A DNA stretch of 26,362 nucleotides, taken from positions 1,613 to 27,974 of the forward strand of contig CAZHVX010000005.1 of assembly GCA_964536295.1 (NCBI GenBank), given 5' to 3'. The notes beneath the pieces were generated by a model. It did not search any database, was not told the origin of the DNA, and saw nothing but the letters and a program-made list of their open reading frames with translations. Positions 146-24,778 of this stretch are shown one piece after another (positions within the stretch are counted from its first letter, which is position 1; each line of letters starts with the position of its first letter). This DNA comes from an uncultured Pseudomonadota bacterium (GTDB taxonomy: Bacteria > UBA10199 > CAZHVX01). Position numbers and translations under genes: made by a program.

Positions 146-329
146 TAAATAGTGAACTGCTTAGCTAGGGATTGAAACATTGTGGAGGGTATGCCGAGAT
201 ATCCTGCAAACGCAAAAACGCAAAGAATATTTTTCGCGATTTCGCGGTTACAGCACATCCCGCCAGGAGTCTTCCCGACGGTCAATCCAACAAGGAGAAA
301 AAAATCCATAATAAAGGAGGTGAGTGATC

Positions 330-545
330 ATGGCAGTAGAAAAAAATATGGCATCCTCGAGTCTAGTTGAGGTTATCGATCGTATTTTGGACAAGGGCGT
401 TGTAATTGACGCTTGGGCAAGAGTTTCATTGGTCGGTATCGAACTGTTATCCATCGAAGCAAGAATCGTTTTGGCTTCAGTGGAAACATATTTGAAGTAT
501 GCCGAAGCTATTGGCTTAACAGCTTCAGCTGCAACTCCAGCGTAA
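330..545 (+). CDS. gvpA: Gas vesicle structural protein GvpA.
   Basis: The protein [63 protein letters not shown]... carries the canonical GvpA signature ([43 protein letters not shown]). The RBS AGGAGGTG sits 7 nt upstream of ATG 330. The ORF-track start at 324 is a GTG just upstream in the same frame. Confidence 0.92.
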
Positions 546-2754: not shown

Positions 2755-3215
2755 AACCCAAGATTCTCAAAAAAAGCAATGGAAGGGCCACAATTAAGTG
2801 TACCTTTTGTCATGGTAAAGGCACGGATCCCTTTGAGGTTATGTCTAAGCTATCCCGTTGTTCGATTTGTCATGGCAAAGGTGAGGTGATGATCCAAGAA
2901 CCGTTTGCCCCCTGTGCCTATTGTCATGGTACGGGAGTCCACCGGGACAGCCGTATGAGCTGCCTGGTTTGTCATGGCAAAGGGGTTGTGCATATTGATA
3001 GATCATCGAACACCTGTGAACTTTGTGGCGGAACCGGCAGGCAGCCAGGGGAATATCTCCCTTGTCTAATGTGTAAAGGAAAAGGATTTCTTGTTCCGGG
3101 TGAAATTGTGGCCAAGCGAAAAATTAAGAGTACAGACAAAACAAAGAAGCTGGGCAAAAGTGATAGGTTGAAATTGATGAAAAAAAGAGCAACTTTTGTT
3201 AAACGTGAAACCTGA
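2751..3215 (+). CDS. Second stand-alone CxxCxGxG-repeat zinc-finger protein (six repeats) with a K-rich C-terminal tail.
   Basis: The motifs CTFCHGKG, CSICHGKG, CAYCHGTG, CLVCHGKG, CELCGGTG and CLMCKGKG are present. It shares a 4-bp ATGA overlap with the upstream paralog. Confidence 0.7.
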   Translation: MKPKILKKSNGRATIKCTFCHGKGTDPFEVMSKLSRCSICHGKGEVMIQEPFAPCAYCHGTGVHRDSRMSCLVCHGKGVVHIDRSSNTCELCGGTGRQPGEYLPCLMCKGKGFLVPGEIVAKRKIKSTDKTKKLGKSDRLKLMKKRATFVKRET

Positions 3216-6524: not shown

Positions 6525-6923
6525 ATGGAAAAACATACCGAAGAATTCACATGGCAACCATATCGACATGCAGGTGGAAAGGCTAGAGTTGGGAAAAAAG
6601 GACAACTATTAAAAGGCTCGACGTTCGATTGCGCCTTTTGTAATGGCACCGGAGAAAAGCCGCGTGGATCAAAGTGTTCAGTTTGTCGGGGCGAAGGAAA
6701 GATAAAGGTTGATCCACCAGCTGTATATTGCGCCTATTGTCATGGACGGGGTGAGACTCCACCACGCAGCAATTGTACCTGTACCGTTTGTCGTGGTAAG
6801 GGCGTGGTAAGTATCCAACAGCCGGTTGAGGCCTGTGCTCATTGTCGTGGAACGGGGGCCGAACCGGGCAACAAACTGCCTTGTTTAAAGTGCCGCGGTA
6901 AGGGTGTTGTAGCGAAGAAATAA
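6525..6923 (+). CDS. Third stand-alone CxxCxGxG-repeat zinc-finger protein (DnaJ CR-like), with an N-terminal extension.
   Basis: The motifs CAFCNGTG, CSVCRGEG, CAYCHGRG, CTVCRGKG, CAHCRGTG and CLKCRGKG are present. The RBS AAAGGAGGG precedes the start. Confidence 0.7.
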   Translation: MEKHTEEFTWQPYRHAGGKARVGKKGQLLKGSTFDCAFCNGTGEKPRGSKCSVCRGEGKIKVDPPAVYCAYCHGRGETPPRSNCTCTVCRGKGVVSIQQPVEACAHCRGTGAEPGNKLPCLKCRGKGVVAKK

Positions 6924-6967: not shown

Positions 6968-7285
6968 ATGCCCAACGGAACAGAAAAAAAGGCCTTAGAG
7001 GCTATGTATGAATTGGGCGGCAAGGCAGATATCCGTACAGTAAGCCGTCATATCAGTGTAGATACAAACTATGCGCGTCTTCTTTGTAATGCCTTAGGGA
7101 GGGCGGACTATATCGATATCGATCGGACCGGGCTCTGCGTCCTGGCACCTAAGGGTAAGTCAGAGTTGAAGGCCATGGGAAAGTGGAAAGTCGCTGAAGG
7201 TGATTCAGAAACCAGGCCGGATCCGATGGATGTCGATATCCAAGAACGAATCGATGCATATCAGAAAAAACACCGAGCGTCTTAA
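6968..7285 (+). CDS. Small protein with a winged-helix-like region. Candidate transcriptional regulator.
   Basis: The RBS GAGGAGGAG precedes the start. The segment KALEAMYELGGKADIRTVSRHISVDTNYARLLCNALGRADYIDIDRTGLCVLAPKG reads like an HTH plus wing, but the assignment is by pattern only. Confidence 0.4.
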   Translation: MPNGTEKKALEAMYELGGKADIRTVSRHISVDTNYARLLCNALGRADYIDIDRTGLCVLAPKGKSELKAMGKWKVAEGDSETRPDPMDVDIQERIDAYQKKHRAS

Positions 7286-8546: not shown

Positions 8547-9110
8547 ATGACCGAAAAGAAAAAAGAAAAAGAAAAGGATGGAGCCGATTTTGACATTGGT
8601 AGTCTTGGAGATTTGGGTGGAACAATTGGCGGTATATTTAAGGGACTAGGTGGTTTGATTGATTTGGCTTCAAAGTTAAAAGAAGCCGGTGGTGAGATGA
8701 ACAAGGCCGGTGAGTTCGATTTAGGTGAGAAGTTTAAAAATCTCAAAGGCGCCTATGGTTTTAACATCCGAACGGCAACTGGTAAAGATGGTACGGAAAA
8801 ACCGATAGTTGAACCCATTGGCAGAAAGGTGAGGGAAACTCCCGAAGGGCCGGTGGTGGAGGAAGAACTAGAACCGATTGTCGATGTATTCGATGAGGTC
8901 GATAAAATACAGGTAGTTGCTGAATTACCGGGCGTTACAGAAGATAAGATTAGTTATGAAATCGAAGGTGATATCCTAACCTTACATGCCGAGGGAAAAA
9001 AGAAATACAGCAAGGAGATATTGCTTTCATCCGCAGTTGATAAGGATGGTGTTACTACTTCGTACAAGAATGGAGTCTATGAATTAAAGATGAAGAAAGT
9101 AAAGCAGTAG
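8547..9110 (+). CDS. Hsp20/alpha-crystallin family small heat-shock protein, with a G-rich N-terminal region.
   Basis: The C-terminal alpha-crystallin-like fold VDVFDEVDKIQVVAELPGVTEDKISYEIEGDILTLHAEG...YELKM carries the 'AELPGV' and I-x-I/V-like motifs. The RBS AGGAGGAAA precedes the start. Confidence 0.75.
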   Translation: MTEKKKEKEKDGADFDIGSLGDLGGTIGGIFKGLGGLIDLASKLKEAGGEMNKAGEFDLGEKFKNLKGAYGFNIRTATGKDGTEKPIVEPIGRKVRETPEGPVVEEELEPIVDVFDEVDKIQVVAELPGVTEDKISYEIEGDILTLHAEGKKKYSKEILLSSAVDKDGVTTSYKNGVYELKMKKVKQ

Positions 9111-9119
9111 GAGAACAAA

Positions 9120-11309
9120 GTGGCAGACAAAAAACCAAAGAAATCGCAAAAAGGCACGACAAAAAAGAATGGCCTTCCGCTCAAGGTGGCCGAGGCCTTG
9201 AGTAAAGACGTCGGTCGCGGTATTGCCAGAATTGATCCTGCTTATATGGAAAACCTGGGCGTTTCTATCGGAGATATCGTTCAAATCGATGGGAAGCGTA
9301 AAACTGTTGCCAAGATTATGCCCACATATATGGATGACCGCGGCAAGAAGCTTATACAAATAGACGGTGTTGTCAGGGAAAATGCCAAATCTGGTCTTGA
9401 TGACAGGGTGTTTGTTGACAAGGCATCACATAATCCGGCCAGTCAAATTGTCCTGACTGCGTTGACTGCGGCTCCGGCACGTGGTGAAGATGCCCGTTAT
9501 ATTGGCAGGCTTTTCGAAGGGCTTCCTTTGGTGTCGGGCGATAGGGTAAGGGCCACACTCTTTGGTACACGCTCGCGTGATTTTAAAGTGGTCAGCACCA
9601 GCCCTGAAGGTGTGGTTTTGGTAACACCCACAACAAACATAAAGATCAAGGGTGAAAAGAAGGCTGCAGAGGAAAGGGGACCTCACGAGGTTTCATATGA
9701 AGACGTTGGAGGCTTGGGTAAGGAAATAAATAAGATTCGCGAGATGATCGAACTTCCATTACGGTATCCGCAGGTCTTTGATCGTCTGGGCATTGATCCT
9801 CCAAAGGGCGTGTTATTACACGGACCTCCAGGAACTGGAAAAACTTTAATTGCAAGGGCGGTTGCCCATGAATCGGAGGCAAACTTTTTTTCCGTTAACG
9901 GTCCTGAGATTGTGCATAAATTTTACGGTGAATCAGAGGCGCATCTTCGATCCATTTTTGAAAAGGCGGCGGAGGCGGCTCCTTCAATAATCTTTATTGA
10001 TGAAATAGATGCCATTGCGCCCAAACGTGCCGAGGTGACTGGCGATGTGGAAAAGCGCATCGTTGCTACACTTCTGGCTATGATGGACGGGCTTAAAGGT
10101 CGGGGTCAAGTCATTGTTATTGGCGCCACAAATATTCCAGATGTTATGGATCCGGCGCTTCGTCGTCCGGGCCGTTTTGATCGAGAGATTGTGATCGGTA
10201 TTCCAGACAAGAATGGCCGTGAACAAATTTTAGATATTCACACGCGAGGTATGCCACTGACCGAAGATGTCGACATTGGACATTTTGCGGCAATTACGCA
10301 TGGCTATGTTGGCGCCGATTTGGAAGCGCTTGCTCGTGAAGCAGCTATGATTTCGCTTCGTAAGGTCTTCGATAAGGTGGATTTTAATCTCGATGAAATA
10401 CCTTATGAAACATTGGTTTCTTTGGAAGTCAACATGGATTGTTTTATTCGGGCGCTCAACGAAGTTACACCCTCGGCCATACGCGAGGTCTTTGTAGAGG
10501 TTCCGGATGTTAAGTGGGAAGATGTTGGCGGTCTTGAAGATACGAAAGAGATCCTTAAAGAAACAGTGGAGTGGCCTTTAAAATATGAAAGACTTTTTGC
10601 TCATGCGAACGCCAAGGCGGCCAAAGGTATTTTGTTGGACGGCCCTCCGGGAACGGGTAAGACCTTGCTAGCAAAGGCCCTGGCCAATGAGAGTGAGGTG
10701 AACTTTATCTCCATTAAAGGACCTGAGCTCATAAGTAAATGGGTCGGCGAAAGTGAAAAGGGCGTTCGTGAAATATTCAAAAAAGCCAGACAGGCTGCTC
10801 CTTGCATTTTGTTCTTTGATGAAATCGACAGCATTGCACCAAGACGCGGTGGAGGCGAAGGAGATTCCGGTGTTACCCAAAGGGTTATAAGCCAATTTTT
10901 GACTGAACTCGACGGCCTTGAAGAGTTAAAGGGCGTGGTGATCCTGGGGGCAACCAACCGAAAAGACATCCTTGATCCAGCATTGATTCGTACCGGCAGG
11001 TTTGATTTATCAATAACACTCCCGATACCCGATTTCAAATCCAGAGAGGCAATATTCGAGGTCCATACAAGGAATAAGCCATTGGAGAAAAAGATCAATT
11101 TTAAGGAGATGGCCAGGGCAACTGAAGGTATGGTTGGGTCCGATATCGAGGAAGTGTGCCGGCAGGCTATCATGTTGGCGTTAAGAGAGTTTATCCACAA
11201 ATATGAGGATGACGCCAACAAGGAATGTGAGAAGTTCAAGGTCAAGGCCTCTCATTTTACAGAGGCATTAAAATACATAAAGAAGCAAAAAAGAGGTACA
11301 AGCCAATGA
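9120..11309 (+). CDS. Cdc48/VCP/VAT-type ATPase with two AAA domains and an N-terminal Cdc48-N domain.
   Basis: N-domain: [37 protein letters not shown]1 has Walker A GPPGTGKT, Walker B IIFIDEID and the SRH motif [14 protein letters not shown]2 has [17 protein letters not shown] and [10 protein letters not shown]. The start is GTG with AGGAG 8 nt upstream. Confidence 0.9.
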
Positions 11310-12346
11310 AATATTTTCATGGTATCATAAGTAAGGGGGAGGAAATAAATTTCGGCTCCATTGGATTTCCACTTGCGGATTTTGAAACAAAATTTGGTAA
11401 TGTATTTACAGTTCCCTATGAAAATATGGGGGCAGTAGTCAGCGACATAGACGATATGGATTTTCAAACCCCGGATAAAGAGATGTTGGTACGAAGACTT
11501 TTGGTTCATCAAAAGGTGTTGGAGCATGTTGTTAAAGAAGGTTGTGGAATTTTGCCTGTGAAATTTGGTACGTGTCTAAATGATGTCGATGAGGCCTTGA
11601 AAGTTATGAAGATTGGTTATTTTAAATTCGAAGATGCAAGCAGAAGAATGGGGAAAAAACACGAGCTGGATTTGGTGGTTACATGGGATACTAATAAGAA
11701 GCTTAAAGAGGTAGCCCTGGAAAGTCAGGAAATACAACACTTTAAGCAGAAGATTGAAAAGATGCCAGAATCTAAATCTGCCGCTGAAAAGATGAAGATA
11801 GGGATGATGCTTCAAAAAGAGCTTCATCACGTCCGGGACGGAATTTCACGTGAGATTTTGTCGACCCTGGTTGATATTACCAAGAGTCGATCGGACCACG
11901 AGCTTATGGATGATAATATGGTAATTAATTCATCTTTTCTTTTGAATGACATGGAGGAAAAGACATTTGATAAAATATTGGCTGGGCTGGATTCCAGGTT
12001 TAACGGCGAATTGAATTTTAAATGTTTAACACCACTACCACCATATAGTTTTGCTACTGTTGAAATCAAAACGATAGAATTTGAAGAAATAGAAAAGGCC
12101 TGGAACTTGTTTGATTTTGGGAAAAAGACAACACTTAATGAAATTAAGGAAGTTAATCGGAAACTAACCAAGGAATGGCATCCTGATAAAAGGCCAGGGG
12201 ATCATGAGGCCCAGATCAAATTTGAAGGCCTGAACACCTCATATAAAACACTTTTGGATTATTGTGAAAGTGGGAAGGCCTCCCTTCCCAAAAAGGGCGA
12301 GAAGTTTTTTAAAGTAAATGTCGTTAAGGCAGAGGAGATGTTATGA
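11306..12346 (+). CDS. gvpF: GvpF/GvpL-family protein fused to a C-terminal J-domain (DnaJ-type, HPD motif).
   Basis: The N-terminus and core (YFHGIIS...AVVSD..., LVHQKVLEHV, LPVKFGT, and C-terminal LNFKCLTPLPPYSF) are collinear with the GvpF paralogs at 12343 and 13201. The C-terminal 75 aa, NEIKEVNRKLTKEWHPDKRPGDHEAQIKFEGLNTSYKTLLDY, carries the J-domain HPD tripeptide. There is a 4-bp overlap with the upstream cdc48-like gene. Confidence 0.8.
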   Translation: MKYFHGIISKGEEINFGSIGFPLADFETKFGNVFTVPYENMGAVVSDIDDMDFQTPDKEMLVRRLLVHQKVLEHVVKEGCGILPVKFGTCLNDVDEALKVMKIGYFKFEDASRRMGKKHELDLVVTWDTNKKLKEVALESQEIQHFKQKIEKMPESKSAAEKMKIGMMLQKELHHVRDGISREILSTLVDITKSRSDHELMDDNMVINSSFLLNDMEEKTFDKILAGLDSRFNGELNFKCLTPLPPYSFATVEIKTIEFEEIEKAWNLFDFGKKTTLNEIKEVNRKLTKEWHPDKRPGDHEAQIKFEGLNTSYKTLLDYCESGKASLPKKGEKFFKVNVVKAEEML

Positions 12347-15112: not shown

Positions 15113-17089
15113 ATGGAGAATAAAAAATCTCCATCCTTTTTGACTAATGGTCAAAAAAGACTGATATTTTTTGGTGGCAAAGGCGGCGTGGGTAAAACCA
15201 CCACCGCCGCCGCGTCAGCCATTTTTATAGCCAGGCAATTTCCTCAAAAAAAGGTTCTTGTTCTCTCCACCGATCCCGCACATTCCTTGTCCGATTGTTT
15301 TGAGATATTGCTTAATGATGAGGTTTCTTCGATAAATGGGTTGTCGAACCTCTTTGCTAGAGAATTAGATGCTGCTCGTTTATTAGATGCGTTCAAAGAT
15401 AAGAATGAAAAGATTATCAAGGTGTTGGCCGAAAGGGGAACCTATTTTGATAATGAGGATATTGAAAGTTTCTTTTCTTTATCACTCCCCGGTATGGATG
15501 AAGTAATGGCGGTTATAGAGATATATAATCTTTTTGTAAAAGGTGAGTATGAAACGATTATTATCGATACCGCGCCTACCGGCCATACTATGAGACTGCT
15601 TTTACTTCCTAACCAACTGGAGCAATGGATAGATCTTTTTAACTTGATGCAAGAAAAGCATCGGATCATGACTCGCCGTTTTTCCGGAAGATATGCGCCT
15701 GATGAGGCAGATAAATTTCTTGAAGATTTGACTCATGACCTGAAAGAAATGAGGAGCCTGCTTTCCAATCCTGCTATTACGGAGTTTGTTCCAATCACCA
15801 TCCCTGAGAAAATGAGCTTTAATGAAACGTGTAGACTTCTTGGGGTCTTGAGAGATTGTCATATGCCGGTAAGGAATATTATTGTTAACAACGTGATAAA
15901 GTCTGAGTCTTGTGAATATTGCCAAAAACAATATGAGGCACAAAAATCTGCCATAGAAAAAATCAGGAATTTATTTAAAGATTTTAATATAATGCACATG
16001 CCGCTATATCCGAAGGAGGTGCGGGGAGTCAATGCGCTCAGCGAATTTGCAGGCAGTTTAGTGGGTGAAGAAGTAAACTTTCAAGGGATGGTTCATAGGT
16101 CCAAAAGGAGTGATGGTGATCAACGTATCAAACTTGAACGTTTTCTAAACGACGATTTACAGATGTTGCTTGTTGGAGGCAAAGGAGGAGTTGGAAAGAC
16201 ATCAATTGCAACTGCACTTGCATTAAAGTTTTCCGGGAAATATCCAGATAAAAAAGTCTTACTTTTTTCTACCGATCCTGCCCATTCCTTGTCGGATAGC
16301 CTTGGGCAAGAAATAGGGAATAAAGTAACACAAGTCCAGGCAAGGCCTCTTGCTTCAAATTTATTTGCCATCGAAATCAATGCTGAAAAACTATTTGATG
16401 ATTTCGCAAAAAAATACAAAAGAGAAATAGATGATGTATTTGATGGTTTTTTCAATAGCTCATCTACAGCGGGAATGGATTTTAGCTACGATCGAAGTCT
16501 GATGAAAAAACTTATAAACGTATCGCCTCCTGGACTGGATGAATTGATGGCCTTAAAGGAAATCATGAATTACATAGATAAAGATACATACGATTTCTAC
16601 ATCTTGGATACCGCTCCAACTGGGCATTTGCTACGTTTTTTGGAGCTGCCTTCATTGGTACAAGGCTGGCTGAAGGCAATCTTTAGGCTTTTGATTAAAT
16701 ATGAAGGTATGGTGAATTTGAACAGTGTGGCAGAAAAGATGGTGGAACTTTCAAAGAGTGTAAAGCGGATCAAGGCGATCCTTTGCGATTCCAAAAGGGC
16801 CAAATTTCTTGCAGTTACTATTCCTGAAGCAATGGGGTTTGAAGAGACAAAAAGGCTTGTGGATTCACTTCACAATTTGGATATAGCGTGCACGGGTCTT
16901 GTCATTAATAAAATTTTCCCCAGTGTAAAGTGTGGCTTTTGTGGAATAAAAAGGGACGAACAATTAGAATATGCTAAAAAGATAGAGAAGAAACTTAATA
17001 TAAAACATGTTGCCCGCGTACCTCTGTTTCCATCAGAGATCGTGGGGGTTGAAAAATTAACAAAGTTTGGAGACAGAGCTTTTTATTAG
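15113..17089 (+). CDS. Fused tandem ArsA/Get3-family ATPase (two complete ArsA-like halves).
   Basis: There are two deviant Walker A P-loops (GGKGGVGKTTTAA and GGKGGVGKTSIAT). There are two STDPAHSLSD motifs. Two A-loop or signature motifs, DTAPTGHT(M/L)R(L/F)L, are present. The fused-dimer architecture is typical of ArsA and Get3 anion-pump or tail-anchored targeting ATPases. Confidence 0.85.
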   Translation: MENKKSPSFLTNGQKRLIFFGGKGGVGKTTTAAASAIFIARQFPQKKVLVLSTDPAHSLSDCFEILLNDEVSSINGLSNLFARELDAARLLDAFKDKNEKIIKVLAERGTYFDNEDIESFFSLSLPGMDEVMAVIEIYNLFVKGEYETIIIDTAPTGHTMRLLLLPNQLEQWIDLFNLMQEKHRIMTRRFSGRYAPDEADKFLEDLTHDLKEMRSLLSNPAITEFVPITIPEKMSFNETCRLLGVLRDCHMPVRNIIVNNVIKSESCEYCQKQYEAQKSAIEKIRNLFKDFNIMHMPLYPKEVRGVNALSEFAGSLVGEEVNFQGMVHRSKRSDGDQRIKLERFLNDDLQMLLVGGKGGVGKTSIATALALKFSGKYPDKKVLLFSTDPAHSLSDSLGQEIGNKVTQVQARPLASNLFAIEINAEKLFDDFAKKYKREIDDVFDGFFNSSSTAGMDFSYDRSLMKKLINVSPPGLDELMALKEIMNYIDKDTYDFYILDTAPTGHLLRFLELPSLVQGWLKAIFRLLIKYEGMVNLNSVAEKMVELSKSVKRIKAILCDSKRAKFLAVTIPEAMGFEETKRLVDSLHNLDIACTGLVINKIFPSVKCGFCGIKRDEQLEYAKKIEKKLNIKHVARVPLFPSEIVGVEKLTKFGDRAFY

Positions 17090-17214
17090 TGCAAAAGTGT
17101 TTAAGTGTATAAGTGTATGAGTATATAAGTGTAGAAGTTGAAGTAATTGAAATTTCTATAATCTAACTTAAAAACTCATACACTTAAACACTTATGGACT
17201 TAAGGGAGGTATTT
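17090..17214 (+). promoter_or_regulatory. Intergenic module 3. An octamer array (GTGTTTAA GTGTATAA GTGTATGA GTATATAA GTGTAGAA) is followed by the conserved core AGTTGAAGTAATTGAAATTTCTATAATCTAACTTAAAAACTCATACAC, with TATAAT at 17156-17161, and then reverse octamers. Candidate gvpJ-K-L promoter or operator.
   Basis: The core is near-identical to module 2. It sits immediately upstream of gvpJ. Confidence 0.55.
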
Positions 17215-17571
17215 ATGACATTAGAAGCCAGGCGAGAAGGGTCAGATAGCCTTGCCGATGCAATCGATCGTATATTGGATAAGGGATTAATTATTAATGC
17301 CGATATTCAGGTATCTTTGGCAGGCGTGGAGCTCTTAGGAATAAAGATACGTGCGGCGCTGGCGTCCTTTGAGACGGCGGCCAAGTATGGCCTGGAATTT
17401 CCGTCAGGTACATCTATCGAAGGACCTGCTTGGGAAGAAGCAAAGATACCAAAGGAAGCATGCCCGCAGTGTGAAAAGCGCGTGCCAACTGAGCATCTTA
17501 TGAATGGAGGTTGTCCGTGGTGTGGTTGGATTAGCGCAAAGGCACTTAAAGCAACACCTGAGGCTAAGTGA
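17215..17571 (+). CDS. gvpJ: Gas vesicle protein GvpJ (GvpA-family core with a C-terminal Cys-rich extension).
   Basis: The segment [49 protein letters not shown] is the GvpA/J/M-family core. The RBS AAGGGAGGT precedes ATG 17215. The C-terminal CPQC...CPWC forms a putative Zn-ribbon. Confidence 0.85.
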   Translation: MTLEARREGSDSLADAIDRILDKGLIINADIQVSLAGVELLGIKIRAALASFETAAKYGLEFPSGTSIEGPAWEEAKIPKEACPQCEKRVPTEHLMNGGCPWCGWISAKALKATPEAK

Positions 17572-17885
17572 TGCCAATAAATATAGATGAAAAAAATCTA
17601 AAGCATGGTCTCTTAGGTTTGGTGCTAGCCTTGGTGGAAATCATAAGAGATACGTTAAAGATCCAGGCTACAAAAAGAATGGATGGAAAAAGTCTTACCG
17701 AGGAAGAGATCGAACGGTTAGGGCGGGCCTTGATGGAGTTGGATGTGGCCATCGAACAAATGAAGGAAGACCAAGGCGTTTCTGAGGCAGTAGCTTCCGT
17801 CCGTGACGGACTGGACGACATTGTTAATGATGCAATTCATACAATTATTAATCCAGTTGAAGGGAGGCAAATTGATAAATCCTAA
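17568..17885 (+). CDS. gvpK: Gas vesicle protein GvpK.
   Basis: The motif LKHGLLGLVLALVEIIRDTLKIQATKRMDGKSLTEEEIERLGRAL is the conserved GvpK pattern. There is a 4-bp overlap with gvpJ. Confidence 0.85.
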   Translation: MMPINIDEKNLKHGLLGLVLALVEIIRDTLKIQATKRMDGKSLTEEEIERLGRALMELDVAIEQMKEDQGVSEAVASVRDGLDDIVNDAIHTIINPVEGRQIDKS

Positions 17886-18651
17886 AGTTGCAAAATATCT
17901 CTATTGTATTGTCGACGCGAGTGAAGAGGTTAATTTGGGCAACGTTGGTATTGAAAGAGGTGAGGTTTATACAATTGTTTACAAAGATATCGCAGCAATA
18001 GCGCACGATTGTCATCCTGAGCCTTATCAATCGGATGATAAGCAGGTGGTAGAGAGCTGGGTCAAATCTCATCAAGCGGTCATTGATCTATGCTGGGAGC
18101 GATTTGGTACAATACTGCCTTTTGGATTCGATACCATAATCCAGGGGAGTGAAGAAAGAAATCCTCTTGAAAACACAAAAAAATGGATTAGCGATGATCA
18201 TGATAAGTTAAAGGGACAAATTGAGAAGCTTCGTGGAAAGGCGGAATATGGGATTCAGATTTCCTGGGATCCAAAAATTATCATAAATGAATTTTGCAAA
18301 ACCAACAAAGAGATTAAAGCCTTGGAAAAAGAGATATCTACAAAATTAGAAGGTGCGGCATATATGTATAGGCAAAAGCTGGAGGGGTTGTTTCGCAGCG
18401 AATTGGAGAAAAAGGCAAATGAGTTTTTTAAAGAAGCATTCGATAATTTTAAGGTCTATCTGAAAGATGTCAAAGTAGAAAAGGTCAAGAAAATGGATGA
18501 CGGTAGGCAGATGCTGATGAACCTTTCGTGTCTTTTAGAAAAGGGTGAAACTAAAGATCTTGGGGACGAATTGGAGAAAATTGATAAGCGGGAAGGCTTC
18601 TTTGTGAAATTTACCGGCCCATGGCCACCTTATTCTTTCGTAAGTGCATAA
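17872..18651 (+). CDS. gvpL: Gas vesicle protein GvpL/GvpF family.
   Basis: The N-terminus AKYLYCIVD... and the C-terminal FTGPWPPYSFV are GvpF/L hallmarks. The start is taken as TTG 17872, preceded by GAAGGGAGG 5 nt upstream. The ATG at 17803 is an alternative in-frame start that would overlap gvpK by 83 nt. Confidence 0.75.
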   Translation: MINPKVAKYLYCIVDASEEVNLGNVGIERGEVYTIVYKDIAAIAHDCHPEPYQSDDKQVVESWVKSHQAVIDLCWERFGTILPFGFDTIIQGSEERNPLENTKKWISDDHDKLKGQIEKLRGKAEYGIQISWDPKIIINEFCKTNKEIKALEKEISTKLEGAAYMYRQKLEGLFRSELEKKANEFFKEAFDNFKVYLKDVKVEKVKKMDDGRQMLMNLSCLLEKGETKDLGDELEKIDKREGFFVKFTGPWPPYSFVSA

Positions 18652-18682
18652 GTGTATGAGTGTATGAGTTGGAGAGTTGAAT
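18640..18682 (+). promoter_or_regulatory. Intergenic module 4 (short): GTGCATAA GTGTATGA GTGTATGA GTTGGAGA octamer units upstream of the four-helix-bundle gene.
   Basis: The GTGTATRA unit family is the same as in modules 1 to 3. Confidence 0.45.
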
Positions 18683-19048
18683 ATGAAAATAGAGAGATTT
18701 GAAGAATTAGATTGCTGGAAGGCAGCACGGGAACTAGTGACAATAGTTTACAAACTTACACGAGAGAAAATGTTTAGTAGGGATTTTGGATTGAGGGATC
18801 AAATTCAAAAAGCTGCTATTTCAACAATGGCAAATATCGCCGAGGGGTTTGCTGCCAATTCGGATAGGGAATTCATTAGATTCCTAGGATATGCAAGTCG
18901 TTCTGCTATTGAAGTTCAATCACATTTATATGCTACCCTCGATTTAGAATATATAGAGCATGATCAATTTGATAAGGCCTTCAATAAGGCTCAAGATTGT
19001 ACAAATTTATGTAGAGGTTTAATTCGATATTTAAAAACAAAAACTTAA
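18683..19048 (+). CDS. Four-helix-bundle protein of the '23S rRNA intervening-sequence / S23 ribosomal protein' family.
   Basis: The protein MKIERFEELDCWKAARELVTIVYKLTREK...RDQIQKAAISTMANIAEGFAANSDREFIRFLGYASRSAIEVQSHLY is the characteristic pattern of this small, widely scattered family (..W..A..L...IY.LT..FP..E...L..QL.RAA.SI..NIAEG....S..E...FL..A.GS..E....L). The assignment is motif-based. Confidence 0.6.
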   Translation: MKIERFEELDCWKAARELVTIVYKLTREKMFSRDFGLRDQIQKAAISTMANIAEGFAANSDREFIRFLGYASRSAIEVQSHLYATLDLEYIEHDQFDKAFNKAQDCTNLCRGLIRYLKTKT

Positions 19049-19096
19049 AAACAAAAACTTATGGACTTATAAACTTATACACTCATACACTTATTT
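19049..19096 (+). promoter_or_regulatory. Intergenic module 5: reverse-orientation octamers (ACTTATGG ACTTATAA ACTTATAC ACTCATAC ACTTATTT) directly abutting the gvpM start.
   Basis: These are the reverse complement of the GTGTATRA family. There is no RBS between the module and ATG 19097. Confidence 0.45.
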
Positions 19097-19369
19097 ATGG
19101 AACCAACAAGAAACGGTAGAGCGACATTAGTAGACCTTCTTGACAGGGTGTTGGACAAGGGGTTGGTTATCAACGCCGATATCATCATCTCCTTGGCCGG
19201 TGTGCCCTTAATTGGCGTGAACTTGCGGGCAGCGCTGGCGGGCATGGAGACTATGGTTAAATATGGAATGATGCGCGATTATGATCTCAAGTCACGCAAG
19301 TGGGAGAGCGAAAAACGTCGCGAAGAAGAAAAAAAGAAAATAACACCACAGCCATTGGTGCAAAAGTAA
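19097..19369 (+). CDS. gvpM: Gas vesicle protein GvpM/GvpJ-type (GvpA family).
   Basis: The segment TLVDLLDRVLDKGLVINADIIISLAGVPLIGVNLRAALAGMETMVKYGMM is the GvpA-family core. The C-terminal tail is basic and acidic. Confidence 0.8.
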   Translation: MEPTRNGRATLVDLLDRVLDKGLVINADIIISLAGVPLIGVNLRAALAGMETMVKYGMMRDYDLKSRKWESEKRREEEKKKITPQPLVQK

Positions 19370-19380
19370 CAGGGGGATTT

Positions 19381-19560
19381 ATGACATTTGATCCATTCAA
19401 AATAGTAAAAGAGATTCAAAAAGGTTTGAGAGGTTTGTCCAAAAAAGCCGGAAAATCTGGAAATCCGAAATTCAAAGAAATTGAAAAGCGCCTCAAAGAA
19501 ATCGATGAAAAGTTGGAAGAGAAGTTTAGTGACAAACAAGGTGATGAAGAAAACAAGTAG
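19381..19560 (+). CDS. Small hypothetical K/E-rich protein of 59 aa.
   Basis: The RBS ACAGGGGGA precedes ATG 19381 (MTFDPFKIVKEIQKGL...). The ORF-track start at 19300 lies inside gvpM, so it is less likely. Confidence 0.35.
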   Translation: MTFDPFKIVKEIQKGLRGLSKKAGKSGNPKFKEIEKRLKEIDEKLEEKFSDKQGDEENK

Positions 19561-19568
19561 GGGGCTCG

Positions 19569-19952
19569 ATGGCGAGGATTCCTTCAAAAAGTGGGCTGGA
19601 TACATTAAAGGTGCGCAGGGAGCCAAGGCTCGTTAATAACGAACCGGTCCTTTTGTGGCAACAAGGTTCTTACGATTGCGGCAGCTCCTTATCGTCAAGC
19701 TGGAAGCTGGGATTTATATGCTTAACAAAGAATAACATATACTTCCTCCAGGGAAAGCGATGTGTCCTGGAGATAGACTCTCAGCAGATAAGAGAAATTA
19801 CTATTCTAAAAAGAAGTTGGGTCTTGGGGAAGGTGATTGATCAATTGTTTATTAGGATCGTAGACGCAATACAAAGGACAAAGAAATATTACTTTGGTGT
19901 CGATAAACCTGAAAGGTGGAAAGAGGCAATCGAGGGGGTAATAGATGGCTAA
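19569..19952 (+). CDS. Bacterial PH/GRAM-like domain protein, translationally coupled to the DnaK-like gene by an 8-bp overlap.
   Basis: The segment PVLLWQQGSYDCG...WKLGFICLTKNNIYFL resembles the N-terminal PH/GRAM-like module of 21678-22550 (EKVILKSKGGLNDG..WRMGEICLTNERLLFL). It is shared by two proteins flanking dnaK. Confidence 0.5.
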   Translation: MARIPSKSGLDTLKVRREPRLVNNEPVLLWQQGSYDCGSSLSSSWKLGFICLTKNNIYFLQGKRCVLEIDSQQIREITILKRSWVLGKVIDQLFIRIVDAIQRTKKYYFGVDKPERWKEAIEGVIDG

Positions 19953-21681
19953 AGTCATAGGTATAGACCTAGGGACAACGTATTCAGTAATGGCTTACTT
20001 GGATAACGGTAAGGCGAAGATCATCCCTAACGCCGAAAAAGAGCACCTAACTCCTTCTGTGGTGGGCTTTGATGCCTTGGAACACGCCTTTGTTGGGGAT
20101 CTTGCCAGGCGCCAATCTGCCATTCATCCCGATCGAACGGTTGCATCCATCAAACGAAAGATGGGAACTAACCATCGTGTAAAAATAGGATCGAAAGAAT
20201 ATTCGCCTCAAGAAATCTCGGCGTTTATACTCAAAAAACTAAAAAGGGATGCAGAAAAATATCTTGGCGACGAAGTCAAGCAAGCTGTGATTACAGTTCC
20301 AGCATATTTTAACGATTCACAACGTCAAGCTACCAAAGATGCAGGAAAGATTGCAGGGCTAGAAGTGCTGCGTATAATCAACGAACCAACGGCAGCATCA
20401 TTGGCTTATGGTCTTGGCCACGGCGGAACACAAACCGTTTTGGTGTGGGACTTAGGAGGTGGAACATTTGATGTTTCCATACTGGAAATTGGCGAAGGGG
20501 TGTTCGAAGTTAAATCAACTTGTGGAAATACACAGTTGGGTGGTGACGATTGGACGGAACGGATTGCCGATTTTGCCATAAAAGAATTTGAATCGAAACA
20601 TGGCGCCTTTCCCAAAGATAACCTGATTGCAATGCAAAGGGTAATAAATGCTGCGGAAGAGGTCAAAATAAAAATTTCTCATGCAAGGGAAGTGAATATA
20701 AACGTACCGTTCATATCTAACAATGGAGATAAACCAGAGCATTTGGATTGTAATCTTTCCAGAGAAGTTTATGAAGACTTTACCGCTGATCTTTTGGAGA
20801 AGCTGATTGGTCCTACCAGGCGAGCTTTAGAAGATGCCGGGCTTACGCCGGAAAAAATAAACCACGCGGTTTTGGTTGGCGGCTCTACCAGGATGCCTGC
20901 GGTTCAAGCTAAAGTCGCTGAACTGATGAGCAAACAGCCTTTTAAAGGTGTAAACCCAGATGAGGTGGTTGCCATTGGTGCGGCAATTCAGGCCGGGGTC
21001 TTAACCGGAGAGGTGACCGATGTAGTCTTGGTGGACGTTGTTCCACTTTCATTAGGGATTGAGACACTCGGCGGTATATTTGCCAAAATAATGAGTCGCA
21101 ATACCACCGTTCCTACTTCCAAGAGCCAGATATTTACAACTTCGGCAGACAATCAAATCGAAGTCGATATCCACATCCTTCAAGGTGAACGTGAGCTGGT
21201 TGCAAATAATACTTCATTAGGCAATTTTAAACTGGTGGACGTTTCACCTGAAGCTCGGGGCGTTCCTAAAATTGAAGTGACCTTTGATGTTGATGCCGAT
21301 GGTATTCTAAGCGTTTCTGCAAAAGATCTATATACAGAGAATGAACAACGAATTCAAATTAGCTCACCAACGGCATTATCTTCTGAAGAAGTGGAACAAA
21401 TGGTTACGGAAGCCAAGTCACATGCCGAAGATGATCGCAAAAAACGAGAGGAAATAGAACTTACTATCAAGGCAGACAATGTTGTTTATGCCGCATTGGA
21501 AACAATGGAAGAAAAAGGCGATTTGTTTGACAAGGTTGAATTGAAACAGGCAAATACGTTGGTGAATAAAATAAAAGCAGCCTTGAAAGAAAACAACTGC
21601 GAACCTTTACCAAGTTTGATGGAAGAGTTAAGGGTGTTGATGGAAACCGTGTGCAACAAAAAAACTAAGGAAAAGGTATGA
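19945..21681 (+). CDS. dnaK: Hsp70/DnaK-family chaperone, a short paralog of 578 aa.
   Basis: The Hsp70 signature motifs IGIDLGTTYS, DLGGGTFDVS and VVLVDVVPLSLGIETLGG (substrate-binding domain) are present. It lacks roughly 50 to 60 C-terminal residues, including the lid end, compared with canonical DnaK. Confidence 0.9.
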   Translation: MAKVIGIDLGTTYSVMAYLDNGKAKIIPNAEKEHLTPSVVGFDALEHAFVGDLARRQSAIHPDRTVASIKRKMGTNHRVKIGSKEYSPQEISAFILKKLKRDAEKYLGDEVKQAVITVPAYFNDSQRQATKDAGKIAGLEVLRIINEPTAASLAYGLGHGGTQTVLVWDLGGGTFDVSILEIGEGVFEVKSTCGNTQLGGDDWTERIADFAIKEFESKHGAFPKDNLIAMQRVINAAEEVKIKISHAREVNINVPFISNNGDKPEHLDCNLSREVYEDFTADLLEKLIGPTRRALEDAGLTPEKINHAVLVGGSTRMPAVQAKVAELMSKQPFKGVNPDEVVAIGAAIQAGVLTGEVTDVVLVDVVPLSLGIETLGGIFAKIMSRNTTVPTSKSQIFTTSADNQIEVDIHILQGERELVANNTSLGNFKLVDVSPEARGVPKIEVTFDVDADGILSVSAKDLYTENEQRIQISSPTALSSEEVEQMVTEAKSHAEDDRKKREEIELTIKADNVVYAALETMEEKGDLFDKVELKQANTLVNKIKAALKENNCEPLPSLMEELRVLMETVCNKKTKEKV

Positions 21682-22550
21682 AAAAAGTAGCATTAAATCC
21701 CAATGAAAAAGTAATCCTCAAAAGCAAAGGCGGCCTAAACGATGGTAGTCAGTCACGTTGGCGAATGGGAGAAATTTGTCTTACAAACGAGAGGCTTTTA
21801 TTTCTCCAACCCTTTGGAATTACTTGTGAAATAGCATTATCCTCGATGGACGAAGTGGGTGTGGAGAAAAAGGACTATGCCTTCGGTCAGAAAAATGCGT
21901 TGTTCTTGAAATATAAGCACAATAATGAGGGCAATGATAAGCATGGCACAATTTGGGTAGTTACGCCAGAGCTGGATAGGTGGAAGGAAAAGCTTTGTGG
22001 TTGGATGCTGATTCAAGTGACTGAAGAAGATTTGGGCAAGGTCTGTGAAAAATTAGATCCGGACTCGGAACGAATTGTTTGGCACTTTTGGGAGGTATCG
22101 CACGCTCGCATCGATGAGCTGGCAACTCTCATTGGTGCTTCGGCGCATATGGATGTGCTCATAAAGATAAGGAACGAGATCAACAAGGTTGCCAGTGAAA
22201 TATTAGGATATCCGTTATTGACATTTGATGTATCCAAAAAAGATCCGGAAACCGAAAAGGATGTTACCTATAGTTGGTGGCTGATAGGCCGTGGCGGTAG
22301 GACAATATCCAAAGAGACTTTTTGCGATGTGTTTGACGAGGGAAAACAATTGGTGGTGGTGGTTGAATTGCTTGGCGTTGATGATAAAGACCTCGATCTT
22401 CAAATAGATCAAAAACGTATTCGGATCAACAATTCAAGTAATGGGAATTGTGAAAAGGAGGTATTCTTGCCCGTCGAAATTGTAGTCGATAAGATCCAGC
22501 AACGTTTTAATAATGGGATTTTGGAAATCAGGGCAACAAAAAGGGGCTGA
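21678..22550 (+). CDS. Two-domain protein: an N-terminal bacterial PH/GRAM-like domain and a C-terminal Hsp20/alpha-crystallin-like domain.
   Basis: The N-terminus parallels 19569-19952. The C-terminal segment QLVVVVELLGVDDKDLDLQIDQKRIRINN...VFLPVEIVVDKIQQRFNNGILEIRATK resembles an alpha-crystallin beta-sandwich. There is a 4-bp overlap with dnaK. Confidence 0.55.
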   Translation: MKKVALNPNEKVILKSKGGLNDGSQSRWRMGEICLTNERLLFLQPFGITCEIALSSMDEVGVEKKDYAFGQKNALFLKYKHNNEGNDKHGTIWVVTPELDRWKEKLCGWMLIQVTEEDLGKVCEKLDPDSERIVWHFWEVSHARIDELATLIGASAHMDVLIKIRNEINKVASEILGYPLLTFDVSKKDPETEKDVTYSWWLIGRGGRTISKETFCDVFDEGKQLVVVVELLGVDDKDLDLQIDQKRIRINNSSNGNCEKEVFLPVEIVVDKIQQRFNNGILEIRATKRG

Positions 22551-22657
22551 AATGGTAGAAAAATCTAGCGAGATTAAATGTTCAATATTTCAAAAGGAAG
22601 AGTGGGTTGCAAAACAACTAACTTCCTACATTATATTGATGTAAAATAAACGAACTT

Positions 22658-23380
22658 ATGAAAGATTATTACGAAATATTGGAGGTGCATCCACGAGCTA
22701 GCCAGGAGGTTATCAAAAAGGCCTATCTGGTTTTGTCCAAGCGTTATCACCCGGATGCCCATGACAGTGAAAGGGCTGGCTGGGCCGAGGAAAAGTTCAA
22801 GGTGATAAATGAGGCCTTTCAGACATTGGGTGATTTAGTTAAGCGCAAGGGGTATGATTTGGATCGAGAGGGTAGCGATGATTATGAATACTGCGAGGAA
22901 GAAGAAGTTGAAATCGATGAGAAGGCATATTTTCACTATCGCTTAGGGTTAGATCATTTTGAAAAAACGGATAAAAGAAGATTCATGTCGGTATTGCTGG
23001 GTAGTTGGCAACGAAACTTGAAGTTGGCTCAAAAATATTTTTTAAAGGTTGTTCGTACATTCCCTACTAGTTATTATACTGACCAATCTCAGTATCATTA
23101 TATAGTATGCTTGATGCGTGAGTATGATTACTCAGAAAAACATGCACAATTGGTAGAAAAAGAGACAGAAATGTTTTTAAAATGTTATCCGGAAAGTGAA
23201 TGTAGAGACATTTTTTACTATCAACTAGGTCAGTTTTATTTGTTAAAGCGACAAGACTATAATAAAGCCATTGAAAACTTGAAGCTATTTTTGGCAGCCT
23301 GTCCTGAATCCTCTAATGCAAAGGATGCAAGATGTTTGCTAAAGTATACTATCAGTCGTCAGTCATCAGCTGACAGCTGA
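22658..23380 (+). CDS. J-domain protein (N-terminal DnaJ J-domain with HPD motif) with a C-terminal helical, TPR-like region.
   Basis: The segment DYYEILEVHPRASQEVIKKAYLVLSKRYHPDAH...KFKVINEAFQTLGD is a canonical J-domain. The remainder is helical with Y/L/K-rich repeats resembling TPR. Confidence 0.75.
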   Translation: MKDYYEILEVHPRASQEVIKKAYLVLSKRYHPDAHDSERAGWAEEKFKVINEAFQTLGDLVKRKGYDLDREGSDDYEYCEEEEVEIDEKAYFHYRLGLDHFEKTDKRRFMSVLLGSWQRNLKLAQKYFLKVVRTFPTSYYTDQSQYHYIVCLMREYDYSEKHAQLVEKETEMFLKCYPESECRDIFYYQLGQFYLLKRQDYNKAIENLKLFLAACPESSNAKDARCLLKYTISRQSSADS

Positions 23381-23396
23381 AAGCTTAATTAACGAT

Positions 23397-23732
23397 ATGA
23401 CTTGGATAATTATTATTAGTGTAATAATCGGCATTCTGAGCGGTGTCATGCTGGGTGCATGCCTCGGTAGAACAGGTGTCGTTGAGATGTTTCTGGCTAT
23501 ATGTCGGATCCCTGCATTATTAATCAAATCTCCAAATAAGATAAAATCGATATGGCGGCAATGGCACGAGGAAAGGGCAAAGGTTGCCGTTGCATTCATG
23601 AAGCGCAAAGAACAAATTGCCACGTTAGGAGAGCGGATTGCCAAAAAGAAGGAGGAAATTTGTGGATTAAAGCGTGATATCCGCAAAGTAAGATGGCAAA
23701 TGAAGGAACCGCGGAAAGATAAAACTGTTTGA
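23397..23732 (+). CDS. Small hypothetical protein with an N-terminal transmembrane helix and a charged C-terminal half.
   Basis: MTWIIIISVIIGILSGVMLGACLG is hydrophobic, followed by a K/R/E-rich region. No RBS is evident. Confidence 0.3.
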   Translation: MTWIIIISVIIGILSGVMLGACLGRTGVVEMFLAICRIPALLIKSPNKIKSIWRQWHEERAKVAVAFMKRKEQIATLGERIAKKKEEICGLKRDIRKVRWQMKEPRKDKTV

Positions 23733-23813
23733 TAAAGATGTTGACTGTTACAAAAACTCACCGTAAAAAGATAATTTCAATTTGAAAGAAAATAATTCAA
23801 AGAGGTGTTTTTA

Positions 23814-24200
23814 ATGAAAACGGTATTTATTGTAGATGATAATAGTGAAATTAGAAAGCTTTTCACCAAAGTATTAAAAAAAGAAGGCGTAACGCGTATA
23901 CTTACTGCCTCCAATGGCGAAGGTGCCGTTAAAATAGTGAAAAAGAGGCGAAAAGGGAGCATTGACCTGGTGTTGTTGGACCTGCGGCTTCCAGATATGA
24001 ATGGAATTGAGGTTTTAAAACAGATAAAGTTGATTGATAAAAAGATTAAAGTGATCATAGTGAGTGGAACCTTGAGCGCTGCCCTTGTTGTACAAGTCGG
24101 AAAACTTGGAGCATTTGACATCTTCGGCAAACCCTTTGATTTATTTGAACTGCAGGATGCCATCAAAAAAGCGCTGGCGGCTAATCCGCGTAAACAGTGA
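23814..24200 (+). CDS. Stand-alone response-regulator receiver domain (CheY-like).
   Basis: The segment VFIVDDNSEIRKLF...DLVLLDLRLPDMNGIEVL...IIVSG...KLGAFDIFGKPFD contains the conserved DD, phospho-acceptor D (LLDLRLPD), and S/K residues. The RBS AAAGAGGTG precedes ATG 23814. Confidence 0.8.
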   Translation: MKTVFIVDDNSEIRKLFTKVLKKEGVTRILTASNGEGAVKIVKKRRKGSIDLVLLDLRLPDMNGIEVLKQIKLIDKKIKVIIVSGTLSAALVVQVGKLGAFDIFGKPFDLFELQDAIKKALAANPRKQ

Positions 24201-24379
24201 TTTTCCCGTCCCTGTTGTCAAGAAAATAATTTTACAAAACTCCAATTTATTAATAATATCAAGCAGTTATACGCGCTCAAAAGATCAGAGATTGTTCGTT
24301 TCAACTTGACTCTACGTCTGTATAAGAGTAAAAACGACGTTGCTCAAAACCAATAATTTTTAACAAAAAGGAGGAATTT

Positions 24380-24778
24380 ATGGCAAAAGCAGTATTAGTA
24401 AAAGGGCTTGGCGTTCGTGTACCAGATGCGATTGGTTCGCTTCAAAGTGTCCTGACACCTTTGGCAGAGGCTCGTGTAAATATTGACGCCTTGATAGGTG
24501 GAAGCGTAATTGGCGAAGGCCAGGTTACAGTGGTGTTGCAAGATGTTGTCAAGGCTGTGGATGTACTCAAAAATGTGAACATCGTTCCTTGGGAAACCGA
24601 TGTAGTAGCGGTGGAAGTGAACAATGAGCCAGGTGCGTTGGCCGAGGTTGTATCCAAAGTTACCCAAGCGGGTGTGAATATCCGTTCAACCTGGGTGACC
24701 ACAGGCATTAGTGATGCACTAACACGTCTTTACTTGATCACCGATGACAATACAAAAGTTCTGAATGTCATTGTGTAA
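24380..24778 (+). CDS. ACT-domain protein.
   Basis: The RBS AAAGGAGGA precedes the start. The G-rich loops and beta-alpha-beta pattern ([23 protein letters not shown]...[23 protein letters not shown]) are typical of tandem ACT domains. Confidence 0.55.

Follow-up and report, generated by a model that had tools for sequence, protein, structure and literature searches.

A PH-like/Hsp70/alpha-crystallin gene module in a gas-vesicle operon

The window analyzed here, i.e., the whole 26,362-nucleotide stretch of contig CAZHVX010000005.1 (assembly GCA_964536295.1) from an uncultured Pseudomonadota bacterium, contains a single gas-vesicle (gvp) cluster encoded on one strand. At the 3′ end of this ~23-kb gvp operon lie three genes, all on the + strand. 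They encode a single-domain protein of 127 aa with a predicted pleckstrin homology (PH)-like fold (PHs; 19569..19952), a tail-less DnaK-type Hsp70 of 578 aa (19945..21681), and a 290-aa protein, PMA (21678..22550), in which a PH-like, a middle, and an alpha-crystallin domain follow one another. PHs is identified by its open reading frame (ORF), a GGGGG ribosome-binding site (RBS), its AlphaFold2 (AF2) fold, and Foldseek matches; the Hsp70 by Pfam HSP70 and NCBIfam NF001413; and PMA by its ORF, an AF2 model, and a family alignment in which its architecture is conserved. As reported in the first-pass annotation of this DNA, the end of PHs overlaps the Hsp70 start by 8 bp (ATGGCTAA) and the end of the Hsp70 gene overlaps the PMA start by 4 bp (ATGA). 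A G-rich RBS precedes each of the three start codons. The three genes are translationally coupled.

Pfam/NCBIfam and phmmer comparisons identified in the cluster gvpA, two gvpN, four gvpF/L, and gvpG, J, K, M, and O, together with genes for coiled-coil proteins, a GvpH-like small heat shock protein (sHsp), a Cdc48-like AAA+ ATPase, and a two-domain ArsA. In the 3′ part, the order is gvpA/J-like, gvpK, gvpM-like, PHs-Hsp70-PMA, and a gene encoding a J-domain/tetratricopeptide repeat (TPR) protein. No terminator-like site was detected on the + strand within 17000-24500, and the operon extends from gvpA (324) to at least 22550 and probably reaches the J-domain/TPR gene at 23380.

The Hsp70 matches Pfam HSP70 with an E value of 5.8e-207. 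The signature motifs of the nucleotide-binding domain (NBD) and substrate-binding domain (SBD) previously attributed to it are all present (DLGTT, PAYFNDSQRQATKDAG, DLGGGTFD, GGSTRMP, VLVDVVPLSLGIET, and QGER), and the protein keeps the nucleotide-binding motifs, the hydrophobic interdomain linker, SBD-beta, and the helical lid. It passes the NCBIfam DnaK equivalog NF001413 (PRK00290; 778.4 bits, cut-off 648), fails the stricter equivalog TIGR02350 (prok_dnaK; 760.4 bits, cut-off 822.55), and remains below both HscA cut-offs (TIGR01991, 582 versus 708; NF003520, 577 versus 620). The first-pass annotation had described this Hsp70 as ending about 60 residues short of canonical DnaK, with a truncated lid and no disordered tail. 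The alignment runs to residue 594 of E. coli DnaK (query residue 565), leaving 13 further residues to the end, and the helical lid is therefore complete. The disordered C-terminal tail with its conserved acidic end is, by contrast, indeed absent. The short length is thus due to the missing tail and to the missing N-terminal NBD insert of E. coli-type DnaK, which accounts for ~24 of the ~60 residues and is likewise absent from the DnaK of Geobacillus and M. tuberculosis.

Two features are common to the Hsp70s encoded in related gvp clusters (see below). Every gvp-linked Hsp70 ORF that spans the region (27 ORFs plus the window) has the motif VWDLGGGTFD, the W position being Y in Geobacillus DnaK and F in M. 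tuberculosis DnaK, and all gvp-linked copies stop 206 to 230 residues past the PLSLGI motif, i.e., 10 to 25 residues beyond the last lid helix. Over the C-terminal 200 residues, the two housekeeping sequences are 58% alike and any gvp-linked copy is 27 to 50% identical to either of them, which suggests that the SBD and lid of the gvp-linked proteins are under altered constraints. Judging from its sequence motifs, the Hsp70 of the window is an active-looking DnaK-type chaperone belonging to a distinct gvp-linked subfamily. A tailed housekeeping DnaK was also found beside a gvp cluster, in locus L010 of Desulfobacterium sp. N47 (20144-20758, - strand), which has no gvp-linked Hsp70. This fragment retains a long Gly/Gln-rich acidic tail (...DADFEEVKDDKK), and its placement is probably a coincidence; it was used here for comparison.

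The proteins flanking the Hsp70 share an N-terminal module (32% identical over 103 residues; E=2e-10), a likeness beyond chance that takes in the motif W..G.ICLT...FLQ. The AF2 model of PHs (pLDDT 87.4) has seven strands and a C-terminal helix at residues 25-126 according to DSSP, and its Foldseek matches in the PDB include the PH domains of GRK2, TAPP1 (TM 0.70), Btk, and Vps36. Essentially all of these matches belong to the PH superfamily (PH, PTB, talin F3, GLUE). In the model of PMA, computed from a 28-sequence alignment (mean pLDDT 89.7), residues 12-109 (21711..22004, + strand) likewise fold into seven strands and a C-terminal helix. The N-terminal domains of both proteins are thus confidently predicted, each modeled alone, to adopt the PH-like (PH/GRAM/GLUE) fold that the earlier annotation had proposed, with structural matches to solved domains of this kind. 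At the sequence level, PMA scores below the Pfam gathering thresholds of the PH clan (bPH_3, 18.0 versus 23; Vps36, 17.2 versus 24.1; GRAM, 13.9 versus 23.6), and PHs has no Pfam match. The net charge of the modules is +1 and +3 in the window proteins, with family means of +5.8 and +7.0.

A feature of PMA beyond those in the first-pass annotation is a conserved middle domain of ~90 residues (residues 116-202; 22023..22283, + strand), modeled as four helices and a beta hairpin, and no other part of the PMA family is as strongly conserved (HMDVL.KI..INP...G.P.L.F...FSWW). A Pfam scan of 28 family members assigned it to no family, and comparison of its profile with PDB sequences returned only noise (E>=0.22). 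In two fold searches made with whole proteins, PH and alpha-crystallin matches prevailed, and the middle domain received no fold class. The domain is acidic, with a net charge of -8 in the window and a family mean of -3.8, and its long third helix is neutral.

The C-terminal part of PMA (residues 216-288; 22323..22541, + strand) is predicted by AF2 to form the beta sandwich of an alpha-crystallin (Hsp20-type) domain (ACD), in agreement with the earlier assignment. The Pfam HSP20 score is below gathering (13.3 bits versus 20.8), and HSP20 is matched at E<=0.1 by 14 of 28 PMA relatives (best, 9.8e-9). PMA has no C-terminal IXI extension, ending (...GILEIRATKRG) two residues past the final strand. 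Pfam GvpH (PF05455) is unmatched in PMA and matched by one of the 28 relatives at 0.0028; three of the 28 weakly match the Pfam "HSP20-like domain found in ArsA".

Two J-domain proteins, also absent from the first-pass annotation of the module, are encoded in the same cluster. The first (11306..12346, + strand) is a GvpF/L-family protein (Pfam GvpL_GvpF, 2e-41) with a C-terminal J domain at residues ~273-318 (Pfam DnaJ, 4.2e-9; 36.8 bits, cut-off 27.8), in which the HPD is intact (WHPDK). The same GvpF-J fusion with HPD was found in 14 related loci, seven with a cluster-encoded Hsp70 and seven without one. This equal distribution is such that GvpF in these gvp clusters appears to engage an Hsp70 in general, a cluster-borne Hsp70 paralogue being an addition in roughly half of them. 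By its domain composition, GvpF-J probably recruits Hsp70 to GvpA-family clients. The second protein, J-TPR (22658..23380, + strand), combines a J domain (Pfam DnaJ, 8.8e-21; 74.2 bits against the same cut-off; YHPDAH present) with a TPR/YfiO-like C-terminal half (YfiO, 1.6e-6) and is a candidate Hsp70 co-chaperone. No homologue of it was found in the related loci other than copies of the same contig. The cluster also encodes three J-less DnaJ-type CXXCXGXG zinc-finger proteins (2440-2754, 2751-3215, and 6525-6923), with homologues in many related gvp loci. The cluster thus provides, besides the Hsp70, two J proteins, two alpha-crystallin proteins, and zinc-finger modules. A full-length Type I dnaJ (J, G/F, zinc-finger, and C-terminal domains) was not found beside the Hsp70 gene.

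Distribution and gene context of the PHs and PMA families

Word-index homology searches with PHs or PMA returned only the query itself. Relatives were found by an exhaustive HMMER search of 1.84 billion proteins with a profile of the PH and middle domains, which yielded 219 cluster representatives at E<=1e-3, of which 98 remained at E<=1e-10. The family comprises many PH-middle-ACD proteins of ~290 to 340 aa, short PH-only proteins, middle+ACD proteins, and fusions of PHs with PMA (e.g., P0003, 422 aa). A second search added standalone PHs proteins of 113 to 186 aa and PH modules fused to Gas_vesicle (PF00741). The members carry only the database names "Hsp20/alpha crystallin family protein", "HSP20 family molecular chaperone IbpA", and "hypothetical protein". 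Ten proteins of ~260 to 280 aa (P0075, P0090, P0112, P0117, P0122, P0123, P0125, P0126, P0128, and P0143) have the middle domain and ACD behind a different N-terminal domain of ~100 residues.

Related loci were located with an 8-sequence alignment, the 28-sequence alignment being too diverse, and were annotated by phmmer with the window's own proteins. This gave 99 loci, 19 in species-representative genomes and 80 in metagenomes; a tblastn search of plasmids with PMA had no matches. The 19 loci represent about ten phyla, and the taxa include Chloroflexota/Dehalococcoidia, Aminicenantes, Desulfobacterium sp. N47, Actinomycetota, Atribacterota, Ignavibacteria, Clostridia/Eubacteriales, Planctomycetota, "Ca. 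Hakubella", and "Ca. Aerophobus". At least two gvp genes were present in 36 of the 39 related loci having at least 3 kb of sequence upstream of PMA, with the recurrent order gvpA/J - sHsp - gvpK - gvpL - gvpM(+PH) - [Hsp70] - PMA.

The position of the Hsp70 gene differed with the architecture of PMA. Among 33 loci encoding a PMA with a single PH module, an Hsp70 gene adjoined PMA in 25 (upstream in 20, downstream in 5) and was not adjacent in 8. For the PHs+PMA fusions (~420 to 450 aa), it was upstream in one case (a 49-aa match), downstream in none, and not adjacent in 37. The difference gives a Fisher p of 3e-11, in which independence is overstated because many of the loci come from related organisms. 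In a third arrangement (L003, L105-L110 type), the order is gvpK-gvpL-gvpM+PH-x-ArsA-PHs-Hsp70, followed 3′ of the Hsp70 by a B12-radical-SAM gene and by TPR and zinc-finger genes; L107 has PMA as well. PHs lies directly 5′ of the Hsp70 gene in L003 and L105-L109, often overlapping its start, by 4 or 8 bp as in the window; in L110, one gene separates them.

The gene set is hence conserved and gvp linked, so that neither of the conditions under which the first-pass annotation would have been refuted holds, but the compact order PHs-Hsp70-PMA was seen in the window only. Relatives have the permutations GvpM+PH-Hsp70-PMA, ArsA-PHs-Hsp70...PMA, and the PHs+PMA fusion, and by gene-order comparison the window shows one of several arrangements of the same conserved genes. 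Its Hsp70 gene seems to stand exactly where PHs and PMA are joined in the fusion known elsewhere.

PH modules are also fused to gas-vesicle proteins themselves, namely, to Gas_vesicle (PF00741) in P0187, P0190, P0192, and GvpM proteins of ~370 aa. In most relatives, the gvpM-type GvpA homologue has 250 to 390 aa and combines a GvpA-like domain with one or two PH-like modules and, at its C terminus, a CxxC..CxxC zinc ribbon; for some of these fusions, GRAM/Vps36 matches were already precomputed. The long GvpM+PH fusion at 8368-9483 of L010 and similar ones end in such a ribbon (CxxC...CxxC). The window encodes a short form without PH, a GvpM/J-type GvpA homologue of 90 aa (19097..19369, + strand; Pfam Gas_vesicle, 8.5e-18; NCBIfam GvpM, 7.7e-27), as do L008, L021, L051, and L054. 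That relatives have GvpA homologues of the GvpJ/M type with fused PH modules, and that PHs is fused to PMA where the Hsp70 is missing, makes it plausible from the domain architectures that the PH proteins are adaptors bringing the Hsp70 to the gas vesicle, as suggested previously.

A Lys/Glu-rich ORF of 59 aa (19382-19560) with a strong GGGGGA RBS lies between the gvpM-like gene and PHs; no homologue of it was found in the 110 fetched loci. We considered whether gvpM, this ORF, and PHs together represent one frameshifted GvpM+PH gene. We rejected such a broken gene: each ORF has its own RBS, a short GvpM without PH is also found in other loci, and PHs matches the standalone/N-terminal PHs family at E~1e-20 to 1e-27, against a much weaker E~1e-6 for the PH modules fused to GvpM.

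A possible chaperone system for gas-vesicle assembly

Our preferred reading, to which we give a probability of about 55%, is that the module forms part of an Hsp70/J-protein system dedicated to gas vesicles, in which PH-like proteins are the adaptors and an sHsp-like protein is the holdase. The reading builds on the gene structure and coupling, the predicted folds, the catalytic and HPD motifs, the gvp linkage, and the domain fusions; the interactions, the client, and the direction (assembly versus repair) are what we infer. In model systems, GvpF binds GvpA, the hydrophobic shell protein; its J domain, and perhaps J-TPR too, would load GvpA/J/M-type clients onto the tail-less Hsp70, which would keep them soluble until insertion into the growing shell. 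Hand-off from sHsps to DnaK is established chaperone biology, and the alpha-crystallin domain of PMA could similarly serve as an ATP-independent holdase or docking module. The PH-like modules, which occur free, fused to GvpJ/M, or fused to the ACD protein, would be protein-protein adaptors through which the Hsp70/ACD pair is held at the vesicle surface or at the assembly complex that contains GvpJ/M. The assignment of the J domain to this pathway is in line with the proposal that GvpF is a chaperone-like first binder of GvpA (Iburg et al. 2024, PMC11445434). Overall, the data suggest that a gvp-linked chaperone set is used by many uncultured bacteria to build gas vesicles.

A more specific version, modeled on pICln and its pairing with Sm proteins, can be put forward only tentatively. 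Here, nascent GvpA-family subunits would be brought to the tail-less DnaK by GvpF-J. The PH modules would cap, or pair with, beta edges left exposed on GvpJ/M/A subunits and would anchor the Hsp70/ACD pair where the rib is growing. Were this borne out, a prokaryotic protein organelle would for the first time have an Hsp70 system of its own, and the PH modules would represent a new functional class of bacterial PH-like domains.

Several observations weigh against a dedicated assembly system. By overall identity, the gvp-linked Hsp70s form no tight clade: they are 48 to 63% identical to the window Hsp70, and Geobacillus DnaK, at 58.5% over 509 aligned residues, falls within the same range. Roughly half of the related clusters carry PH proteins and GvpF-J without encoding an Hsp70, which makes the latter an optional addition, and GrpE was not found among the 30 window proteins scanned. 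The middle domain, for all its conservation, matched no family with an assignable function. Finally, the positive average charge of the PH modules means that they could bind membranes or nucleic acids instead of Gvp proteins.

The alternative that we take most seriously, while considering it unlikely, places the same proteins in quality control or disassembly. Under this explanation, the Hsp70 and PMA would act with the Cdc48-like ATPase and sHsp to pull out, disaggregate, or recycle misassembled or collapsed GvpA-family protein, and the PH modules would recognize damaged vesicles. The window and many related loci do encode a Cdc48-like double-AAA+ ATPase (9120-11309 in the window) and an additional sHsp, the pairing of sHsps with Hsp70 is generally typical of disaggregation pathways, and an Hsp70 that is dispensable in many clusters fits a factor that improves fitness rather than an essential one. 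The J domain, however, is carried by GvpF, an assembly-stage GvpA binder according to the literature, and the module genes are co-transcribed and translationally coupled with structural genes. That the Hsp70 is simply an ordinary housekeeping DnaK beside a gvp cluster is very improbable. Its score above the NF001413 cut-off and its identity to Geobacillus DnaK agree with a housekeeping protein, but the score is below the TIGR02350 cut-off, the gene overlaps both of its neighbors, and neither grpE nor a canonical Type I dnaJ lies beside it. Moreover, its placement recurs in several phyla, in 25 loci beside PMA and 7 more beside PHs, and the missing tail and W signature are common to the other gvp-linked copies.

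Two further explanations, both improbable in our view, concern the flanking proteins. The middle domain of PMA could be a winged-helix DNA-binding domain, PMA then being a gvp transcription factor set by the Hsp70 and neighboring response regulators, in analogy with DnaK setting HspR or sigma-32 activity. The predicted element order (helix-helix-helix-helix and beta hairpin) is winged-helix-like, single weak helix-turn-helix (HTH) matches to HTH_20 and HTH_DeoR were obtained among the 28 family members, and response-regulator genes adjoin PMA in many loci (23805-24200 in the window). Despite this topology, the acidity of the domain and its neutral third helix argue against DNA binding and make PMA an unlikely regulator. 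No HTH match in Pfam or the PDB was significant, and the fusion of PH modules to a shell-protein homologue better fits a structural or assembly role. Alternatively, the PH-like modules could bind the cytoplasmic membrane and, with the Get3-like ArsA, bring vesicle nucleation or the chaperones to it. Many PH/GRAM-like folds bind membranes, the modules are net positive, and a gene for an ArsA/Get3-type ATPase adjoins PHs in L003 and L105-L110. Gas vesicles, though, are lipid-free and form in the cytoplasm, the canonical phosphoinositide-binding motif was not identified in the PH modules, and many PH-like domains (pICln, GLUE, PTB, CheF) bind proteins.

Relation to known systems and other features of the cluster

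Both chaperone-type genes within gvp clusters and Hsp70/J pairs with a dedicated role are already known, and the presence of ArsA and Hsp20 in gvp operons has been noted (Castillo & Saier 2010, PMC2963123). Like GvpH and the other sHsps of gvp clusters described together with ArsA (PMC2963123), PMA is an alpha-crystallin protein inside a gas-vesicle operon and could be presumed to be a Gvp chaperone. It differs from them in that a PH-like and an orphan middle domain replace the sHsp N-terminal region, in having neither the IXI extension nor a Pfam GvpH match, and in being paired with an Hsp70. HscA-HscB of Fe-S cluster assembly offers a parallel in organization: a specialized Hsp70, with a C terminus shorter than that of DnaK, is encoded in the same operon as the pathway that it serves and works with a J protein specific for the client. 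In contrast, the window Hsp70 matches DnaK models with far higher scores than HscA models, and it is the putative client-binding protein itself, GvpF, that carries the J domain. With DnaK-DnaJ-GrpE and IbpA/B-type sHsps, the window system shares the NBD, linker, SBD, and lid, the HPD in both J domains, and an sHsp that could act as a holdase feeding the Hsp70. Unlike that system, it has no disordered tail, grpE, or full-length Type I DnaJ, and it has J-less CXXCXGXG zinc-finger proteins, the VWDLGGG substitution, and a location in a gvp operon.

The PH-like modules recall adaptors such as pICln, the Vps36/EAP45 GLUE domain, myotubularin PH-GRAM, and archaeal CheF, a likeness that we take as a lead, there being no sequence relationship above Pfam thresholds. 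GvpJ and GvpM are minor GvpA homologues needed for vesicle initiation; a gene of this type lies just 5′ of the module (19097-19369), and the same protein bears PH modules in relatives. To our knowledge, PH-like and zinc-ribbon extensions are not part of the studied haloarchaeal, cyanobacterial, or Bacillus GvpJ/GvpM.

The annotation knew of no earlier description of the module, and none was found in Pfam, NCBIfam, or the open-access literature searched. In neither Pfam nor NCBIfam is there a model for PHs, the architecture of PMA, or the middle domain. The literature yielded nothing relevant on gas vesicles in combination with Hsp70, DnaK, J-domain, DnaJ, or pleckstrin/PH domains, and we found no description there of the GvpF-J fusion. 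PHs and PH-middle-ACD thereby emerge as two protein families without a name, the latter with an orphan middle domain. How GvpA, a very hydrophobic protein, is kept soluble and inserted into the growing vesicle is an open question (PMC11445434; PMC12848028). The same question restricts what gas vesicles can do as acoustic reporters in foreign hosts, in which expressing them is proteotoxic (PMC12848028; PMC11445434), as it is in E. coli (PMC12848028). The widespread gvp clusters of uncultured anaerobes, with their own Hsp70, GvpF-J, J-less zinc-finger proteins, and an sHsp-like protein with PH-like putative adaptors, make the idea of GvpF as a GvpA chaperone directly testable and offer candidate helper genes for heterologous gas-vesicle expression.

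Among the remaining genes, gvpA, encoding the major shell protein, marks the 5′ side of the cluster (324..545, + strand; ORF with a phmmer match to the small GvpA of L010, 5e-34). The GvpH-like sHsp (8547..9110, + strand; Pfam HSP20, 4e-5; GvpH, 1.5e-3) is separate from PMA and weakly resembles its ACD. The two-domain ArsA/Get3-type ATPase (15113-17089) is present, like the Cdc48-like ATPase, in many related loci. A GvpA/J-like protein of the window (17194-17571) ends in a CxxC...CxxC zinc-ribbon motif (ETCPQCG...GCSSCGW). Between gvpL and gvpM, inside the operon, lies a gene for a "23S rRNA intervening sequence" four-helix-bundle protein (18677-19048). Its homologues occur in the gvpA/J-gvpK-gvpL-gvpM block of L014, L048, L068, L071, L095, and L096, either between gvpL and gvpM or just 5′ of gvpK.

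Some neighbors of the module vary between loci. The response-regulator gene just 3′ of the module (23805-24200) has counterparts in L013, L014, L053, L063, L064, L095, and L101, and loci of the Atribacterota type have a response regulator between gvpM+PH and the PHs+PMA fusion. The genes for a B12-binding radical SAM protein and TPR proteins that follow PHs-Hsp70 elsewhere (L003, 4553-6870; L105, 12234-14644; L107, 6673-8285) are missing from the window. At 6968-7285, 12 kb from PMA and PHs, the window encodes a small protein that belongs to no Pfam family and whose homologues directly adjoin PMA or PHs in L004 (1129-1608), L017 (6208-6621), L107 (8298-8720), and L110 (8095-8718).

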